32,698 nt of DNA from Rhodothermales bacterium (GCA_030833605.1 JAURGV010000001.1:1-32698), one strand, 5' to 3'. Shown: positions 12,712-20,350, counted from the first letter of the stretch. Notes: generated by a model not told the origin, from the letters alone. Numbers and translations are program-made.

Positions 12712-13254
12712 CTAGATAGGTAGGCCAGTATTCCCGAAGTCGAGACGGTCTTCTACCATTTGCCGCATATCTTCGAATGCGGGTGATTTGTCGGAAAGGA
12801 ATCGCCAAGCATCTGGCACCAATCGGTAAACCGGCATATAGAAGTCCGATGAATCGCGCGATGATTGAGCGGGAAGTTGCGCCATTCCAATCATCATAAA
12901 GGCGAGACTGAGTAAGATGGCCGCTTTAAATCCACCGGTGATTCCGCCTGCGATCCGATCCAATCCGCTTAGTTTTGCAGCTTCCAACAAAGAAGATGCA
13001 GCTTTTTCGACGGTCAAAAAGGCCAGTTTTACGAGCATAAAAATGCCGATAAAAGCGACCATAGAGCTCAATCCGCTCGTAAATCCAAGTTTTAACTCGA
13101 GCAAGCGACCTGTGGATTCCATAAAGGAAGCCGCCAGTACAAACGCCAGAATCGTCCCCACCAAGCTACACGCTTGTTTCAGGAAGCCAGATTTCAAACC
13201 TCGTAAAAGGCCGATTCCAACTATAATCAATATGAAGATGTCTAATGTTGCCAT
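12712..13254 (-). CDS. cvpA: CvpA-family membrane protein
   Basis: This 180-aa ORF has the N-terminus LDIFILIIVGIGLLRGLKSGFLKQACSLVGTILAFVLAASF and four TM helices, as is typical of CvpA. Confidence 0.75.
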   Translation of the reverse strand: MATLDIFILIIVGIGLLRGLKSGFLKQACSLVGTILAFVLAASFMESTGRLLELKLGFTSGLSSMVAFIGIFMLVKLAFLTVEKAASSLLEAAKLSGLDRIAGGITGGFKAAILLSLAFMMIGMAQLPAQSSRDSSDFYMPVYRLVPDAWRFLSDKSPAFEDMRQMVEDRLDFGNTGLPI

Positions 13255-13275
13255 AATTGTGTTATCGGCGCACTT

Positions 13276-13734
13276 TTACATTTCTGAAAGCGCAGCCTTA
13301 ACAATTTCCTGAACAATTTTTCCGTCCGCCTTTCCTTTGAGCTGTGCCATGGCGGGTCCCATCACTTTGCCCATTTCCCGCATGGAAGTCGCACCTGACG
13401 AAGCTACTAGCGCATCTACGACTTTACGGATGGCCTCTGGTGAAAGTTGCTCAGGGAGATAGGTTTCAATAATAGCAAGCTCCGCTACCTCGACCGCTTT
13501 CAAATCCTCACGACCGGCAGCTTCGTATTGATCAATAGAATCACGGCGCTGTTTGGCCTGCTTCTGGACCACTGCTAGGGCTTCTTCTTCCGGAATATCA
13601 CCGGTTCCACCCGAACGGAGTTCGATTTCACGCGCCATAACCGCTGCTCTTAGAAACCGGACAGTACGTAGACGAACCTCGTCTCTTGCCTTCATGGCTT
13701 CTTTTAGATCGATCTGTAGCTGCTCTTTTAACAT
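13276..13734 (-). CDS. GatB/YqeY domain-containing protein
   Basis: This 152-aa ORF starts MLKEQLQIDLKEAMKARDEVRLRTVRFLRAAVMAREIE and ends ...KADGKIVQEIVKAALS, which is the characteristic YqeY pattern. Confidence 0.85.
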   Translation of the reverse strand: MLKEQLQIDLKEAMKARDEVRLRTVRFLRAAVMAREIELRSGGTGDIPEEEALAVVQKQAKQRRDSIDQYEAAGREDLKAVEVAELAIIETYLPEQLSPEAIRKVVDALVASSGATSMREMGKVMGPAMAQLKGKADGKIVQEIVKAALSEM

Positions 13735-13835
13735 AGGTGGGAGGCATTATAGGATGAAGTTATGCGTTTCGAACGTTGCTTCAACGACCAAGATCAGTGC
13801 CAGTTCGCCCGAAAAATCAAGAAAAACGGGTCCGC

Positions 13836-14390
13836 CTAGAAAATCAATCGAAATGCGATCACGCCCACCCCAATTTGCATCACGCCCAAAGCTAAACCCG
13901 ACTGAACATCGAGTGTTTTAACTTTTTGCTTTAGCCGTTTGTCGCCTGTTTTCAAGTAATCGTTGAATCGATTGTCGGCTTTCGTTCTGAAATGGATAGC
14001 AGCCATTCCCGATAAAACAGACACGCCGGTGGCTATCGTTATCCATTTTTTGTTGCTTCGAACGGCGTCGATGCCAAACTTGGGCTTTAATGTGGTGTCT
14101 ACAACTTGGTTTACCACAAAATTTGCCACTATGCGTTGAACAGGGTCGTCGTTTAATTCAACATCAACGTGTCGGTTAGTCCAAATATCCTTGTCGGGAT
14201 GCTTTACGGAAATGACCTTGGTAGACGACTGCACCGTAAACGGAGACTGCGAAACCGTTCCAATCATTACTGAATCGGCAAAGACCTGAGCTTCAGAAAA
14301 ATTCGATTCTACGTGGATAACTCGTTGGGCTGCAACTGGTGAGGCGCCCAGCAATAACCAAGCAAATAGGATGAGGCATCTAGTTATCAT
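13836..14390 (-). CDS. hypothetical envelope protein: signal peptide, PEGA-like beta domain, C-terminal TM hairpin
   Basis: This 184-aa ORF has a signal peptide (MITRCLILFAWLLLGASPVAAQ). The segment IHVESNFSEAQVFADSVMIGTVSQSPFTV looks PEGA-like. Two hydrophobic helices lie near the C-terminus (WITIATGVSVLSGMAAIHF and GLALGVMQIGVGVIAFRLIF). Its start overlaps the upstream stop by 11 nt. Confidence 0.55.
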   Translation of the reverse strand: MITRCLILFAWLLLGASPVAAQRVIHVESNFSEAQVFADSVMIGTVSQSPFTVQSSTKVISVKHPDKDIWTNRHVDVELNDDPVQRIVANFVVNQVVDTTLKPKFGIDAVRSNKKWITIATGVSVLSGMAAIHFRTKADNRFNDYLKTGDKRLKQKVKTLDVQSGLALGVMQIGVGVIAFRLIF

Positions 14391-15552
14391 TCGATTCCTC
14401 CTTAAAGTACGTCACGTATCGAGGCTCACTTAATACAATTAAACCGCCATCGGCTACAGCCATCGCGGATTTGATTCGTCCCCTAAGCGCTGTTTCCCAC
14501 TTTACTTCTCCCGTAAGTCGATCCAATGCGTACAGGTGCCGCCCCATGGATCCAACAAACACCAAACGATTCGTGATTAGCGGCGCAGCAACAATCGCAT
14601 CGGGAAAAGCAGATTCCCAAACTGTGCTTCCATCCGTGCTATTGAAGGCTCTGACGATACCGTCGGTCGCAGCTACAACGACTAACTCATCGTCGACAGC
14701 ACTGCTGCCCATTCTAACATTCGCGCTGCTTAACTCATTGCGCCACAACACCTTTCCTGTTGAAGCATCCAGTACATCTAGCGCTCCCCTGGTGGTAGGA
14801 ACGATTATACGATCACCGAAAGTTGAGCCACCTTCGTAACTGGGACCTGATAATTTTTGCGTCCACAGTTGACGTCCATCCGAAGCGTTAAACAAAAACG
14901 CGTTCCCAGCATCGTCGGCAACAAATACCGATAAGTCCCCAACCTGCAACAATGCACTCTGCACGGAAATTCCTTTCCCTAGCGATTGCGACCAGGACAT
15001 TTTGCCTGTTGAGGGGTCATATCCTGTTACGAATCCGTCCACATCGGCAGCTACCAACACGCCATCTACAAGAACCATCCCTGACTCTATAGGGACACCC
15101 TTGTTTCGCCAAACGAAGCTTCCCTTTTTCAAATCGAAGGAGGTCAACGTGCGTTTTCCCCACGCTGAGGCCACAATTAACTTCCCTTCGTGAATGATGG
15201 GGCTCCCTTCGATGCCCTCCCCAAAGCTTTTAATGCCACGTTTTGCACCCGTTTTCAGCTCAATAGCGTGCATCTCCCCTTTTTTATTGGCAACCAGTAC
15301 AACTCCTTTCAGAAGTAGAGGAGATCCCTGTCCAAATGCTGCGGCCGCATTGTATTCCCACTCCAAAGTTAGTGGCGCTTGGAGGTCCTCATCGTAGCTT
15401 CGGCTTCGGCTTAAGTCGCCGCTGTCAACAAGCCAATCCTGGGAAGACGAAATGCTAGGTTGTTGAAACTGAATCGTTTGACAACCAGCCCCTAACAAAA
15501 AGGCGAAAGGCAGCACCGCAGCGGAAAACCATATGTTTGGAATACGCTTCAT
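14380..15552 (-). CDS. PQQ-like (BamB-like) beta-propeller lipoprotein
   Basis: I start at MKRIPNIWFSAAVLPFAFLLGAGC, the 43rd codon of the track ORF, which gives a signal peptide plus lipobox. The start lies 1 nt after the upstream stop. The body has repeated ~40-aa blades of the form G.V.A.D..G.L.A.D..TG...W (for example DGFVTGYDPSTGKMSWS, GALDVLDASTGKVLWR, DGIVRAFNSTDGSTVWE, RHLYALDRLTGEVKWE). Confidence 0.8.
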   Translation of the reverse strand: MKRIPNIWFSAAVLPFAFLLGAGCQTIQFQQPSISSSQDWLVDSGDLSRSRSYDEDLQAPLTLEWEYNAAAAFGQGSPLLLKGVVLVANKKGEMHAIELKTGAKRGIKSFGEGIEGSPIIHEGKLIVASAWGKRTLTSFDLKKGSFVWRNKGVPIESGMVLVDGVLVAADVDGFVTGYDPSTGKMSWSQSLGKGISVQSALLQVGDLSVFVADDAGNAFLFNASDGRQLWTQKLSGPSYEGGSTFGDRIIVPTTRGALDVLDASTGKVLWRNELSSANVRMGSSAVDDELVVVAATDGIVRAFNSTDGSTVWESAFPDAIVAAPLITNRLVFVGSMGRHLYALDRLTGEVKWETALRGRIKSAMAVADGGLIVLSEPRYVTYFKEESNDN

Positions 15553-15553
15553 A

Positions 15554-18439
15554 TTAAAAATCCCACCCAAAAAAGAACTGTTTGAAGGTCTTGTCCTTTT
15601 CCGTAAACCCGTTTCGATAGCGATAACCCAGATCGTAGCGCAATACAAAGGCTCCAAAAAGGTTAACCCGGAGTCCAAATCCAGCGGAGCCCACGGTTTC
15701 CCCTGATCTGATTTCGGAAATCACCTGATCGTAGTCCTTATTCCAAGCATGAGCTGCGTCGAAAAACAACGTTCCACGCAAATGGGCTACACCAAACGGA
15801 GCCAAAATGGGTACTAAAACGGTCGGAGCATTAATAAGCGGGAATCTCAATTCATGGGATGTGAACCACATTTTTTGCCCCCTAACATCGAACCAGTGGA
15901 ATCCTCTCAAGTCCCAACTCCCACCTAAAACCGATAATCGTGCTTCCCTTCCCTCGTTAATGCGAACCATTCCCCATGAGGCAAAGGTCACGCTGTTAGA
16001 CAATCGAAAATACTTTCTCACGTCAACGATGACGTTGAAATAGCTTACATTCGAGTACAATACATCGGATGTGTATCCAAGCGATACCGAGCCGCGCCAT
16101 CCCGCCACGGGACCGTTCATCCAATACAATGCCTGATCCCGAACGAACGAAACGGAGTTGGACAACAACAGGGCTTCTCGTTCCACTCCTTTCAAATGAA
16201 TGTCTTTTCGCGTCCAGTTCATGGACGTCAGCATTTCAAAGCGACTGAATTTGGAAAGCGGATAACTGAGCAATCCATATGCACCGTAAACCGTCTCAAA
16301 GAACACAGGGAACGTTGTAGGCGCATCAGGATCGGTGACATCGTAGCGTCGTCCCGAATACCGGTATAAACCGTACCCAATATTTACGCGTCGTTTTAGC
16401 TTAAATCGAGAGAGTTGCAGGCTGAGGTCTCTAAGAAAATCCCCGCTTCCCGTCCCGGTATTAAATAGGGTTAAATACAGGTAGTCATCTCCCAACATGT
16501 CTGAAAACGCGAGGACGGCTCCCCCAGTCGTGCCCAAAACCGAGTTTTGGCTTACTAATCCTTGGGCCAAATCAAGATTGTATCTCCGCTTGTAAGGAGA
16601 CTTTTCATAGTCTACTCCATCTTTCAAACGGCTGTACGACCACGGCCGTCCAATTCCCGATAAATCAGCCATGGCCGTTGATTTTGGCGACGATAGCAGC
16701 GAATCAACCTTAGCCAGCTTTCTAACGGTGAAGTTTAGCCCTTCAAAACTCGTAAACACAATATGATTGGAATCTGCCCAATACGGATCACTCGCCGACG
16801 ATGACAACCGGGTCAACTGTGTTGTTTTCTTATCCGCTGCGGTCATGTCGACCGACCATATATCCTGCGCCGAATACCTCCCCGTTGAGTCTCGTTTGGT
16901 CGAGATGTAAGCAAGGGCTCTCCCATCTGGACGCCATGTCGGAGACAGATCCGTTTGTTCTCCAAAGGTTACATAACGAATGGAGGCGTCTGAAAACTGA
17001 TACGTAAAGATATTGTAGTTGCCCTCGTAACCGGTCGAGGTTCTGTCGGAAGAAAAGGCAATTTGTTGTCCATCTGGGCTCCATGAGGGGTCGCGATCAT
17101 CGTAAGAATCCTGCGTAAGGGCTGTCAATTGAGCGTTTTCGCGATTGAACACATAAATATCACTAAAGCCCTCACTCGTGATACCCGAAAACACCATTTT
17201 CCTTTCGTCCGGGCTCCAGGTGGGTGAGTACACAGCGATGAGATCGTCAAATCGATAGGTATTTACAATTTTATCGGCTTTGAGATCAAACACATGGATA
17301 ACATCCTGACCGCCCGACTTGGTCACAAAGGCCAATAAACCACCCGATGAAACGGAAATACGGCTCTCAAATAAATGAAAAGCTTCCAACTCACCGTTTT
17401 GCTCTCCTTGAATGAGCACTTTGGGTTTTGATATAGGCTCGAACGCATCGTTCACTTCGACCTCAAACACGCTGCTCAAACCACTCGTATTGCCCACGAA
17501 ATAAACTTTTTGCGAGCCGTCCTCAAATCGGTGATAGCTGGGCTTGGCATTAAATCCTTCTGTTGCGAGCCCGCCTGCGGCAAGGGACGTGATTTCTACA
17601 TCTTTCAGCTGCGGGTAGTACTGTTCTTGCAGCCATTTCAACCATTTCTGAGAAATGGTTTCAAAATCGTCCTTCAGCGTGATTTCCAAAACCACCCGAA
17701 AATCTCGATCCTTCCAAATGTTTTCGATAATCTCTAGAATCTTTTCCTCACCATACTTTTCCGAGAAGAATCGATTTATGGCCTCTCCTTGCTTGTACAT
17801 CACATAGGAGCCCTGAATGCGGTACATGGATTCGAGAGGCACCAAATAGTTCGTGAACAAGGCATCTCGAATCACCATTTCATGCTGGTCGTCGGGTTCT
17901 CCCGACCAGTATTCAGCAAGACCTTCTGTAAACCAAAGTGGGAAAAACCGGTCGGATGGTCGCCTATGATCCCGTAGCACTCGGGTCAACTTGTTGTACG
18001 TATACACGTGGACCATTTCATGCCGAATAACTCTACGGAATCGATGTAGGTTACCATTCGCCGGTATGACCACCCGTCCTTTTAGAAATTCAAAAAATCC
18101 ACCGACTCCATCTGGGATAAATCCAGAGGTCACATTGGTTTGCTTGAAATGGAGGTTTGACGAGTAAAAAATGAGCGGAACGCGGTGGTTCAGCGAGAAA
18201 TTAAACTTGTGTTCAAGCTCTGCATACGCTTCTTCCGCAAAAAAAGCACCATGCTCAGCGAGTTCGAGCATTTCGGGATAATAGTAGATATCGAAATGCT
18301 CGGTTTTCATGACCTGCCAGTCAAAATCCTCGTACTGGATTTTATTTCGGCCGAAATGGTAGTTGAATTGAGCCTCAGTGACCTGGACACAAAAAAACGA
18401 CAGCACCAAAAAAATGAAAATCGGCGATATTCTTGCCAT
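15554..18439 (-). CDS. secreted fusion protein: HExxH peptidase-MA-like domain + PD40/TolB-like beta-propeller + C-terminal Omp85-type beta-barrel
   Basis: This 961-aa ORF has a signal peptide (MARISPIFIFLVLSFFCVQVTEAQ) and HEMVH followed by TEGLAEYW. It carries PD40 signatures SPTWSPDERKMVF, DPSWSPDGQQIAFSS and SPTWRPDGRALAY. The C-terminal ~330 aa are beta-strand-like, with GGSWDLRGF (like the Omp85 loop-6 RGF motif) and the terminal sequence FFFGWDF. I could see no POTRA-like repeats. Confidence 0.75.
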   Translation of the reverse strand: MARISPIFIFLVLSFFCVQVTEAQFNYHFGRNKIQYEDFDWQVMKTEHFDIYYYPEMLELAEHGAFFAEEAYAELEHKFNFSLNHRVPLIFYSSNLHFKQTNVTSGFIPDGVGGFFEFLKGRVVIPANGNLHRFRRVIRHEMVHVYTYNKLTRVLRDHRRPSDRFFPLWFTEGLAEYWSGEPDDQHEMVIRDALFTNYLVPLESMYRIQGSYVMYKQGEAINRFFSEKYGEEKILEIIENIWKDRDFRVVLEITLKDDFETISQKWLKWLQEQYYPQLKDVEITSLAAGGLATEGFNAKPSYHRFEDGSQKVYFVGNTSGLSSVFEVEVNDAFEPISKPKVLIQGEQNGELEAFHLFESRISVSSGGLLAFVTKSGGQDVIHVFDLKADKIVNTYRFDDLIAVYSPTWSPDERKMVFSGITSEGFSDIYVFNRENAQLTALTQDSYDDRDPSWSPDGQQIAFSSDRTSTGYEGNYNIFTYQFSDASIRYVTFGEQTDLSPTWRPDGRALAYISTKRDSTGRYSAQDIWSVDMTAADKKTTQLTRLSSSASDPYWADSNHIVFTSFEGLNFTVRKLAKVDSLLSSPKSTAMADLSGIGRPWSYSRLKDGVDYEKSPYKRRYNLDLAQGLVSQNSVLGTTGGAVLAFSDMLGDDYLYLTLFNTGTGSGDFLRDLSLQLSRFKLKRRVNIGYGLYRYSGRRYDVTDPDAPTTFPVFFETVYGAYGLLSYPLSKFSRFEMLTSMNWTRKDIHLKGVEREALLLSNSVSFVRDQALYWMNGPVAGWRGSVSLGYTSDVLYSNVSYFNVIVDVRKYFRLSNSVTFASWGMVRINEGREARLSVLGGSWDLRGFHWFDVRGQKMWFTSHELRFPLINAPTVLVPILAPFGVAHLRGTLFFDAAHAWNKDYDQVISEIRSGETVGSAGFGLRVNLFGAFVLRYDLGYRYRNGFTEKDKTFKQFFFGWDF

Positions 18440-18574
18440 AGAGCACTTGAATGGAAGTTTCTACGAGGCAAATTAGGATGAAGCCGGGTAACCTAAAGAA
18501 CCATCCCGCTTTACGGTCTCAACTGAGGGTTGGACGGTGGCAATAGGTTCGCGAACGGCAAAGCTTGGAGCGAG

Positions 18575-20350
18575 CTATTTCCCTTCTAAGAAGAACGAGA
18601 CGCCACAGGCATGTTCTTCGAGCCATTTATCGACATACGTCCTAAACTCGTCGGGGTCGGCCGCCTGGAGCGCTCTACGAGCCAATTCCTGCCCTTCTGC
18701 CAACTTCATGGCCCGGATAACTCGTTTTATGCCCGGAAGATAGATGGGTGAGGCCGAAAACGTGTCAATTCCAAGACCAAGTAACACCGGGACAGCACGC
18801 AGATTGGTGGCCAACTCTCCGCATAAACTCACGGGAATACCGGCCTTTTTGGCAGCCTTGGTGGTCAGTTGAATCAATTGCAATACGGCCGGATGCAGCT
18901 CATCATACAGGTCGGCGACTAAGTCATTTCCCCGATCGACGGCCAACGTGTATTGGGTGAGATCGTTCGTGCCAATTGAAAAGAAATCGGTCTCTTTGGC
19001 GAATTGGTCGGCGGCAAGCGCTACCGAAGGAACCTCTACCATCGTTCCAATAGGAATATTCTTATCAATCTCAACGCCTTCCTTTTCTAAATCCGCGATG
19101 GTTTCGGCTAGAATCTGCTTAAACAACCGTATTTCTCCGATGGAAGTCACCATGGGAAGCAGGATTCGGGTTGGGCCGTAGGCAGATGCCCTTAACATGG
19201 CGCGCAGTTGAGGAATCAACAGTTCTTTTTTATCCAACATGATGCGAATCCCGCGCCAACCCAAAAATGGGTTATGCTCGCGGGCGCCCATGGGAAGCAT
19301 TTTGTCGCCACCCAAATCCAAAATTCGAAACGTAGTACTATGGGGGCTTGTCGCCTTAACCACTTCCCGATACTGGCCGAACTGCTCTTCTTCCGTGACC
19401 AGAACCTTTCCCTGCATTAAAAGCGCCATTTCGGTCCGGTAAAGGCCAATTCCTTCCGCACCATACTCTTTCAACTGCGGCAATTCATCAATCAATTCGA
19501 GGTTCGCTTGCAGCTGAACCTTGTATCCATCCAATGTTTCGGCAGGAAGCGGGACGAGGGATCGATCCTCTTGAATCAGACGCTGGTATCGCTTGAGCTT
19601 CGTTTTGTAGTGGGAAAGAGTTTTGGCGTCAGGATTAACAATTACATCGCCCTTAATTCCATCCAGAATAACTAAATCGCCGGTTTTGATTTGATGGGTT
19701 AAACCGTGCGTACTTACCACAGCAGGAACGTGAAGCGCTCGCGCCATGATCGAAACATGCGAGGTTGGCCCACCAAAATCTGTAGCACAACCCAGGATAC
19801 CGCGGCGGCTAAACAGAATGATGTCCGCTGCCGTCAGATTTTCGGAGATCACGATGCTATTTTCATCGACTGCCGATAAAATCCGACCTCTTCTAAGGTG
19901 CCTAATGATGCGTTCTTGGATATCCAACAGGTCGTTGGCCCGTTCCCTCAAATACTCGTTATCCGACGCTTCCATAATGCGCCGATGTCTAGACATCACC
20001 GTTTTGACCGCAAAACCAGCATTTACGGCCTGTTTCTGGATAAAAGAGACCACTTCGGGATAAAGTGATTCGTCCCTAAGCATTAATAACTGGGCTTCAA
20101 AAATCGCTGCCCTGTTTTCACCAAGCTTTTCCCGGGTTATCGAGCTGATCTTGTTCAAGTCCCGCTCTGCTTTCTTTACGGCCTCCTCAAACCGCTCCAG
20201 TTCTTTCCCCAGAACATCCTCTTCCAACTTCCTCTCTTCGACTTCAAACGAAACTTTTGCGTACAGATAAGCGGGACCAATGGCGATGCCGGGAGATACC
20301 GGGATTCCTCGTGCATGGCCATCGACAAAATGTTCTGTTCGGGACCCCAT
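18575..20350 (-). CDS. ptsI: phosphoenolpyruvate-protein phosphotransferase (PTS Enzyme I)
   Basis: This 591-aa ORF has the phospho-His motif GGPTSHVSIMARAL and the PEP-utilising TIM-barrel region FFSIGTNDLTQYTLAVDR. The catalytic Cys context is SLCGELA. There is no N-terminal GAF domain, so it is PtsI-type rather than PtsP-type. Confidence 0.93.
   Translation of the reverse strand: MGSRTEHFVDGHARGIPVSPGIAIGPAYLYAKVSFEVEERKLEEDVLGKELERFEEAVKKAERDLNKISSITREKLGENRAAIFEAQLLMLRDESLYPEVVSFIQKQAVNAGFAVKTVMSRHRRIMEASDNEYLRERANDLLDIQERIIRHLRRGRILSAVDENSIVISENLTAADIILFSRRGILGCATDFGGPTSHVSIMARALHVPAVVSTHGLTHQIKTGDLVILDGIKGDVIVNPDAKTLSHYKTKLKRYQRLIQEDRSLVPLPAETLDGYKVQLQANLELIDELPQLKEYGAEGIGLYRTEMALLMQGKVLVTEEEQFGQYREVVKATSPHSTTFRILDLGGDKMLPMGAREHNPFLGWRGIRIMLDKKELLIPQLRAMLRASAYGPTRILLPMVTSIGEIRLFKQILAETIADLEKEGVEIDKNIPIGTMVEVPSVALAADQFAKETDFFSIGTNDLTQYTLAVDRGNDLVADLYDELHPAVLQLIQLTTKAAKKAGIPVSLCGELATNLRAVPVLLGLGIDTFSASPIYLPGIKRVIRAMKLAEGQELARRALQAADPDEFRTYVDKWLEEHACGVSFFLEGK

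Follow-up and report, generated by a model that had tools for sequence, protein, structure and literature searches.

Do three abutting envelope genes of a Rhodothermales bacterium encode one dedicated complex, or do they merely share a conserved gene order? The genes lie within positions 13836-18439 of a 32,698-nucleotide (nt) stretch of DNA (GCA_030833605.1 JAURGV010000001.1:1-32698; analysed over its full length and called the window below) as three co-directional open reading frames (ORFs) on the minus strand, here named g1, g2 and g3. The window belongs to a metagenome-assembled genome (MAG) that is 85% complete. A preliminary description of the locus had proposed a dedicated outer-membrane barrel with a lipoprotein and a membrane-anchored partner, possibly spanning the periplasm. 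We conclude that a single dedicated module is well supported by sequence comparison across lineages. We further suggest, tentatively and with a little less than even confidence, that g1-g2-g3 form one conserved operon for a dedicated envelope complex, acting in the proteolytic quality control or maturation of outer-membrane (OM) proteins or lipoproteins.

The three genes and their junctions

15554..18439, minus strand: g1, 961 residues; signal peptide, HExxH peptidase, PD40 propeller and Omp85 barrel (WD40-Omp85 subfamily)
15553..15553, minus strand: g1-g2 spacer, a single base between the g1 TAA and the g2 ATG
14380..15552, minus strand: g2, 390-residue BamB-like PQQ propeller lipoprotein of the eight-blade type
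14380..14390, minus strand: g2/g3 overlap of 11 nt, g2 stop with g3 start
14397..14403, minus strand: AAGGAGG, Shine-Dalgarno-like by its sequence, within g2 and 6 nt 5' of the g3 ATG
13836..14390, minus strand: g3, 184 residues; signal peptide, PEGA-type beta-sandwich, disordered linker and conserved helical hairpin

The TAA of g1 occupies 15554-15556 and the ATG of g2 follows at 15552. The stop codon of g2 (14380-14382) lies inside g3, whose ATG is at 14390, and the overlap reads ATGATAACTAG. The preliminary description had the ORFs, the 1-nt spacing and the 11-nt overlap right at every coordinate. This geometry is no local accident, because it is kept in 48 of 52 distinct related loci, where the distance from the g1 stop to the g2 start is between -17 and +13 nt (mode, a 1-nt overlap); the modal g2-g3 arrangement across loci is a 4-nt overlap. 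A consensus scan of 13200-18900 gave 4 promoter-like sites (6.1+/-2.4 in shuffles) and 9 terminator-like sites (7.2+/-2.2 in shuffles), both at chance, and no internal signal above chance, in agreement with the earlier statement that neither a terminator nor a promoter gap interrupts the trio. The scan is weak, uninformative evidence, as it uses the sigma-70 consensus and the lineage may use other promoter types.

Conservation of the g1-g2 pair across lineages

Within the class to which the window belongs, the order g1-g2-g3 was found in all 16 sampled genomes, drawn from at least 14 GTDB families in two orders, with g1 identity down to 45% and g2 identity down to 24%. Searching for further loci with a profile extended the set to Ignavibacteria, other Bacteroidota, Calditrichota, KSB1, Zixibacteria, Marinimicrobia, Eisenbacteria and Gemmatimonadota; a few loci occur twice in these sets and in the counts that follow. 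By automatic count, g2 lies directly downstream of g1 on the same strand in 31 of 33 Rhodothermales loci, and effectively in all of them, the two remaining cases being artefacts in which the g2 match falls inside an over-long ORF call. The same arrangement was seen in other Bacteroidota (9/11), Ignavibacteria (13/16), Marinimicrobia (3/3), Calditrichota (2/2), KSB1 (1/1), Zixibacteria (1/1) and Eisenbacteria (1/1). g3 comes next after g2 in 30/30 Rhodothermales loci and, outside that order, in about half of the lineages or more. The preliminary description had suggested checking adjacency in related genomes, and the pairing proves to be kept far beyond close relatives, in about eight phylum-level lineages.

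Phyletic distribution was followed in two samples, 151 genomes from the window's class and 61 from a class centred on Ignavibacteria. Each of these genomes has at least one gene of the g1 family (151/151 and 61/61). The orthologue of the window's g1, of ~950-1000 residues, is absent from families f8 and f17-f20 of the window's class, which have only a paralogue of ~1100 residues. In a profile search of the 151 genomes, full-length g2 (E 1e-57 to 1e-136) was found only where the g1 orthologue is present, always adjoining it; genomes of this class lacking that orthologue gave partial, weak PQQ-repeat matches to the g2 profile, or none. Full-length g2 occurs in 42/61 genomes of the Ignavibacteria-centred class, and exactly those 42 have the g1 form of ~940-1000 residues (scoring 970 bits or more, unless truncated at the end of a contig). 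The other 19 have a best g1-family match of at most 756 bits and no g2. Adjacency of g1 and g2 holds in 30 of the 42; the genes are unlinked in 11, either on separate contigs or at distances of 2.9 kb to 150 kb, and one case is undecidable at contig ends. Since the two genes are retained together even without linkage, these data provide independent evidence of a functional tie.

Judged by profile matches, the distribution of g2 is therefore that of the ~950-residue g1 form and not that of the universal BamA. The canonical BamA of this genome is encoded on another contig (352 bits, above cut-off), so that g2 is not needed to explain BAM, the machinery for beta-barrel assembly. The preliminary description had allowed that this BamA might prove to be the real partner of the lipoprotein; the phyletic pattern appears to favour g1 instead. 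Its proposal of a dedicated barrel, lipoprotein and anchored partner passes comparative tests of adjacency, signals and distribution; the trans-periplasmic span would be a further, putative feature.

g1 carries a putative zinc peptidase and a propeller in place of POTRA domains

18371..18439, minus strand: signal peptide, residues 1-23 (...VQVTEA/QF), predicted from sequence; an N-terminal helix of low confidence in the model
17615..18316, minus strand: peptidase domain, residues 42-275, Peptidase_MA_2-like; an alpha/beta domain in the model
18008..18022, minus strand: HEMVH zinc-binding/catalytic motif, residues 140-144
17906-17932, minus strand: FTEGLAEYW, with candidate third ligand E172/E176, from conservation
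16715..17578, minus strand: TolB-like PD40 beta-propeller, residues 288-575, from profiles and model
16610..16714, minus strand: propeller-barrel linker, 35 residues (576-610), from the secondary structure of the model
15557..16609, minus strand: Omp85 barrel, residues 611-961, 16 strands (residues 621-960 in the model)
15899-15913, minus strand: loop-6 motif DLRGF, residues 843-847

By class definition, g1 falls into WD40-Omp85, which is among the ten subfamilies of Omp85/TpsB proteins defined by Heinz & Lithgow (2014, Front Microbiol 5:370, PMC4104836). Pfam profiles recognize PD40 (67.6 bits) and Omp85 (PF01103, 36.9 bits, above the cut-off of 24) in g1, and precomputed Pfam lists Peptidase_MA_2 (PF13485) for most of its homologues. 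No Pfam match was obtained on g1 for POTRA (E <= 0.1), for Peptidase_M48 or for the patatin domain. The AlphaFold2 (AF2) model cited in the table above was built on 26 homologues, with a predicted local distance difference test (pLDDT) score of 80 and a predicted template modelling (pTM) score of 0.78. It places just the 35-residue linker before a 16-strand barrel, which supports the earlier reading of g1 as a POTRA-less Omp85 protein. The nearest solved structures to the propeller are those of TolB (sequence E 3e-38, fold E 2e-10), and the nearest solved folds to the barrel are BamA barrels (Foldseek, E 6e-9).

H140, E141, H144, E172 and E176 are all retained in 101 of 106 distinct g1 homologues from many phyla. 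The loop-6 motif xRG[F/Y/W] is retained in nearly all of them; with the window's own sequence included, R845 is found in 107/107 and G846 in 104/107. Because catalytic and loop-6 residues are both conserved, enzyme and barrel are evidently both under selection, and on these alignments both look functional.

Three other identities were considered for g1 and rejected. As a BamA, it scores far under the cut-off (TIGR03303, 18.6 bits vs 297), and the canonical BamA is elsewhere in the genome. As a TolB, it reaches 100.7 bits against a TIGR02800 cut-off of 343, with a match that covers the propeller part only, and no tolQRA or pal genes are nearby. A type Vd autotransporter such as PlpD would have the patatin and POTRA domains that g1 lacks.

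g2 and g3

15481-15483, minus strand: g2 lipobox Cys24, invariant in 26 orthologues
14124-14327, minus strand: g3 beta-sandwich, residues 22-89, from the AF2 model
13839-14048, minus strand: g3 helical hairpin, residues 115-184, conserved; from the AF2 model

The N-terminus of g2, MKRIPNIWFSAAVLPFAFLLGAGC, contains a lipobox with Cys24. The PQQ_2 profile ('BamB', PF13360) gives 165 bits and the BamB equivalog profile TIGR03300 gives 148.9 bits, below its cut-off of 285.2. By these scores g2 is BamB-like and no BamB equivalog, although it is the best BamB-like gene of this genome. Identification with canonical BamB was rejected on this score and because the distribution of g2 tracks g1 and not BamA. 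In one Rhodothermales MAG, g2 is split into ORFs of 279 and 179 residues by a frameshift or an assembly error.

Neither Pfam nor NCBIfam matched the window's g3. PEGA (PF08308) was found in longer g3 orthologues (246-290 residues), at 69.9 and 21.8 bits in two examples and among precomputed matches; these orthologues have one or two PEGA domains, two in most relatives. The AF2 model of g3 (pLDDT 78) consists of a confident beta-sandwich (residues 22-89), a disordered linker and a helical hairpin (residues 115-183). A Foldseek search with the model returned nothing at E <= 0.001, and its weak hints were carboxypeptidase-regulatory and SusC-NTE-like sandwiches. The modelled sandwich is compatible with a PEGA fold, and together with the matches in relatives it supports the 'PEGA-like' domain of the preliminary description. 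The second helix of the hairpin is clearly hydrophobic. The loop between the helices (AIHFRTKADNRF...) is highly conserved and strongly basic; its 8 K/R fit the positive-inside rule for an inner-membrane hairpin that is N-out and loop-in. The C-terminal ...AFRLIF was considered as an OM beta-signal and discarded, being unconserved outside Rhodothermales and part of a region that is helical in the model.

Paralogues and variant operons

A g1 paralogue of ~1040-1100 residues has the same domain order, at ~34% identity in the window's class and 24% in a Flavobacteriales locus. It is the sole family member in Balneolales-like families and in 19/61 Ignavibacteria-class genomes. In five loci the ~1100-residue paralogue stands alone, without partner genes, and an RNase R-like gene precedes it in three of the five.

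Gemmatimonadota differ in the partner. Wherever the sequence extends far enough downstream (11 of 11 loci), a gene for a ~240-residue lipoprotein comes after the g1 orthologue with overlapping start and stop, and LptE (PF04390) comes next; this lipoprotein is unrelated to g2 and has no Pfam match. At three further Gemmatimonadota loci, the opposite strand bears a g2-like gene, beside a second type of g1. One Gemmatimonadota genome carries a full-length g2-like gene (C19:4160-5299, E 9e-55, with one in-frame TGA) away from its g1-lipoprotein-LptE operon. Taken together, these matches suggest that Gemmatimonadota have two g1 subtypes. In some Ignavibacteria/Zixibacteria-type and unlabelled loci (n=5), g2 is followed by a HEAT-repeat protein of ~720-790 residues and an Hsp20-like gene, not by g3; the HEAT-repeat assignment is Pfam-confirmed in one of the five.

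A model for the g1-g2-g3 complex

We propose that g1 would sit in the OM through its BamA-type 16-strand barrel, with its HExxH zinc peptidase, in active form, and its TolB-like propeller on the periplasmic side, where they would substitute for POTRA domains. g2, as an OM lipoprotein at the inner leaflet, may dock on g1 and serve there to bind substrates or as a scaffold. g3 is predicted to be anchored in the inner membrane by its helical hairpin, from where its one PEGA domain could reach the complex. The likely function would be proteolytic quality control or maturation of OM proteins or lipoproteins. BepA acts on LptD and is linked to LptD/LptE maturation, and for this reason the LptE neighbour in Gemmatimonadota points to a role in quality control or biogenesis. 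The periplasmic orientation of the N-terminal domains is taken as the default because of two precedents. The enzymatic N-domain of PlpD, an Omp85 protein long thought to be secreted, is periplasmic (PMC11116518), and cryo-electron microscopy of BAM-BepA places the HExxH site of BepA beneath the BamA barrel, in the quality control of OM proteins (PMC13478230). By analogy, g1 may be a covalent, self-contained counterpart of BAM-BepA with its own BamB-like subunit.

Several observations weigh against a conserved quality-control complex of this kind. Peptidase_MA_2 scores 31.2 bits on g1, slightly below the gathering cut-off of 32.4, and the first helix of the g3 hairpin is borderline hydrophobic (mean Kyte-Doolittle 1.47). 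The trio is not fixed everywhere, since in about half of the Ignavibacteria loci no g3 was detected behind g2, and in most Gemmatimonadota the unrelated ~240-residue lipoprotein replaces g2. The LptE link is context from that other phylum only. Two M48 peptidases are encoded elsewhere in the genome, and they may already cover a BepA-type function. Finally, ptsI, yqeY and cvpA are also syntenic in Rhodothermales, so that adjacency within the order proves little and it is the cross-phylum data that carry weight.

A bolder version of the model, which we regard as doubtful, sees a third Omp85-based envelope machine beside BAM and TAM (the module for translocation and assembly), restricted to the FCB group (which comprises Bacteroidota, Ignavibacteria and allied phyla). 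This machine would be trans-envelope and protease-equipped; the BamB-like lipoprotein would replace POTRA domains as substrate dock, the PEGA hairpin protein would couple it to the inner membrane, and its substrates would be a specific class of OM proteins, possibly LptD/LptE, which it would assemble or cull.

Alternative explanations

The barrel might be a mere anchor, in which case the complex would be a periplasmic or OM oligopeptidase for nutrition or peptide turnover, its two propellers controlling entry to the zinc site in the manner of prolyl oligopeptidase, DPP IV or tricorn-type enzymes, with no part in OM protein biogenesis. The PD40 propeller does give matches of weak E-value to S9 peptidases, DPP IV and tricorn protease, the conserved catalytic residues of g1 would suit such an enzyme, and the genome encodes several other PD40 proteins of ~1085-1150 residues (contigs C266, C362, C412). 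We nevertheless consider this unlikely. A mere anchor would not need loop 6, a BamA-type functional hallmark that is almost universal in the family; the partner g2 is BamB-like and LptE is an operon neighbour in Gemmatimonadota; and a family found in every genome of the two samples (151/151 and 61/61), with very different lifestyles, fits a housekeeping envelope role better. Less likely still is a Tol-Pal-like or cell-wall role, in which the targets of propeller and peptidase would be peptidoglycan-associated lipoproteins or peptides of the peptidoglycan, and g3 would provide the link to the inner membrane, so as to tether or remodel the OM-peptidoglycan interface. In this 85%-complete genome every TIGR02800 match stays short of the cut-off, and the top one is the propeller of g1, whose similarity to TolB is pointed out in the passages of Heinz & Lithgow on the subfamily (PMC4104836); the PEGA/carboxypeptidase-regulatory-like sandwich of g3 is also a common periplasmic module. 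Against this stand the distance of that match from the TolB cut-off, the lack of Pal-like OmpA-domain or TolQRA genes in the operon and a neighbour, g2, that is BamB-like and not Pal-like, and in an incomplete genome a TolB may have been missed.

Bacteroidota export many lipoproteins to the cell surface, which lends some credit to a model in which g1 is a type Vd-like autotransporter exporting its peptidase and propeller, with g2 as a surface lipoprotein partner. The domain order, with the enzyme N-terminal and the Omp85 barrel C-terminal, is that of PlpD, and Heinz & Lithgow, in the part of their paper concerned, brought up the possibility for Omp85 proteins that carry enzyme domains (PMC4104836). 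The passenger of PlpD has since been found to be periplasmic (PMC11116518). g1 also lacks POTRA and has a linker of just 35 residues, and g3, Sec-exported and with an inner-membrane-type hairpin, implies a periplasmic partner. In the window's g2, the residues that follow the lipobox Cys (QTIQFQ) do not include the acidic stretch typical of Bacteroidota surface lipoproteins. Surface display is accordingly very improbable in our estimate. We give the smallest chance of all to g2 being simply the BamB of this lineage, serving the canonical BAM and placed after g1 by conserved gene order without a specific g1-g2 partnership. Its rank as best BamB-like gene and the synteny of the flanking housekeeping genes in Rhodothermales would suit this idea. 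However, BamA-type genes are universal, whereas g2 is absent from every sampled genome without the ~950-residue g1 form; the start/stop coupling to g1 extends across about eight phylum-level lineages; and the TIGR03300 score is well under the equivalog cut-off. The reading that we prefer to all of these is the quality-control complex set out above.

Flanking genes

18440..18574, minus strand: ptsI-g1 gap, 135 nt, the sole space for a promoter 5' of the trio
13735..13835, minus strand: gap between g3 and the next gene (yqeY/GatB-like), 101 nt

Intergenic gaps only flank the trio, 135 nt 5' of g1 and 101 nt 3' of g3, and the sigma-70 consensus scan found no match inside the former. The order ptsI-g1-g2-g3-yqeY-cvpA is kept, in whole or in part, in many of the sampled Rhodothermales loci, to ~55% g1 identity. 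In the window the trio is embedded in a long co-directional run of housekeeping genes (12712-20350).

Comparison with known systems

To our knowledge, Omp85 proteins form the core of every known machine for OM protein insertion or translocation, and only BAM, TAM, TpsB and recently PlpD have been studied among Omp85 systems. The g1 type is widespread, with over 4000 homologues in databases. In it, a conserved zinc peptidase and a TolB-like propeller have taken the place of POTRA domains, and a BamB-like lipoprotein of its own is retained. Should g1, g2 and g3 indeed assemble into a complex, it would show how envelope quality control or biogenesis is organized where the proteobacterial accessory proteins are missing, in a large section of the bacterial tree that takes in Bacteroidota relatives, Ignavibacteria, Calditrichota, Marinimicrobia and Zixibacteria. 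If g1 turns out to be no more than a peptidase with a membrane anchor, the enzyme is unusual but ordinary. Our literature searches found no functional study of the WD40-Omp85 subfamily and no account of g1 partner genes, and as far as they reach, the literature does not mention a conserved module of this make-up, BamB-like lipoprotein plus PEGA hairpin protein.

The closest described relatives are in the WD40-Omp85 class itself, which Heinz & Lithgow likened to a BamA-BamB fusion and which, with noNterm, is an accepted POTRA-less exception among Omp85 proteins in the passages concerned (PMC4104836). g1 shares with it an N-terminal TolB-like propeller and an Omp85 barrel without a POTRA cluster, but those 2014 passages cover the propeller only, with no 'peptidase' and no partner genes; the separate 'Metallo' Omp85 group that they describe carries PF00149, a domain other than the g1 peptidase. 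BamB (YfgL) of Proteobacteria is, like g2, a PQQ-type propeller lipoprotein. It docks on the POTRA domains of BamA, however, which g1 lacks, and g2 falls below the equivalog cut-off and follows g1. PlpD and the type Vd proteins also combine an Omp85 barrel with an N-terminal enzyme domain replacing the POTRA array, periplasmic in the case of PlpD (PMC11116518). PlpD differs in being a patatin lipase with one POTRA that forms homodimers, with no known lipoprotein or inner-membrane partners. In TAM, as here, an OM Omp85 gene lies beside that of an inner-membrane-anchored partner, and TamA-TamB bridge the periplasm; TamB, however, is a beta-taco of >1000 residues, whereas g3 has 184-290 residues with PEGA, and TamA has three POTRA domains and no enzyme.

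The comparison with BAM-BepA bears on function. BAM-BepA places a periplasmic HExxH zinc protease site under an Omp85 barrel in the company of a BamB propeller lipoprotein (PMC13478230), as the g1 complex would, and the link of BepA to LptD/LptE is paralleled by the g1-LptE operon of Gemmatimonadota. BepA, an M48/TPR protein, is soluble and separate from BamA, which it binds via POTRA and ring contacts, whereas the g1 peptidase is MA_2-like and fused to a barrel that lacks POTRA domains, and its BamB-like companion is a different member of the family. The comparison is thus one of analogy, not of protease homology. Should the complex prove real, it would offer structural work a natural 'fused' version of the transient BAM-BepA state.

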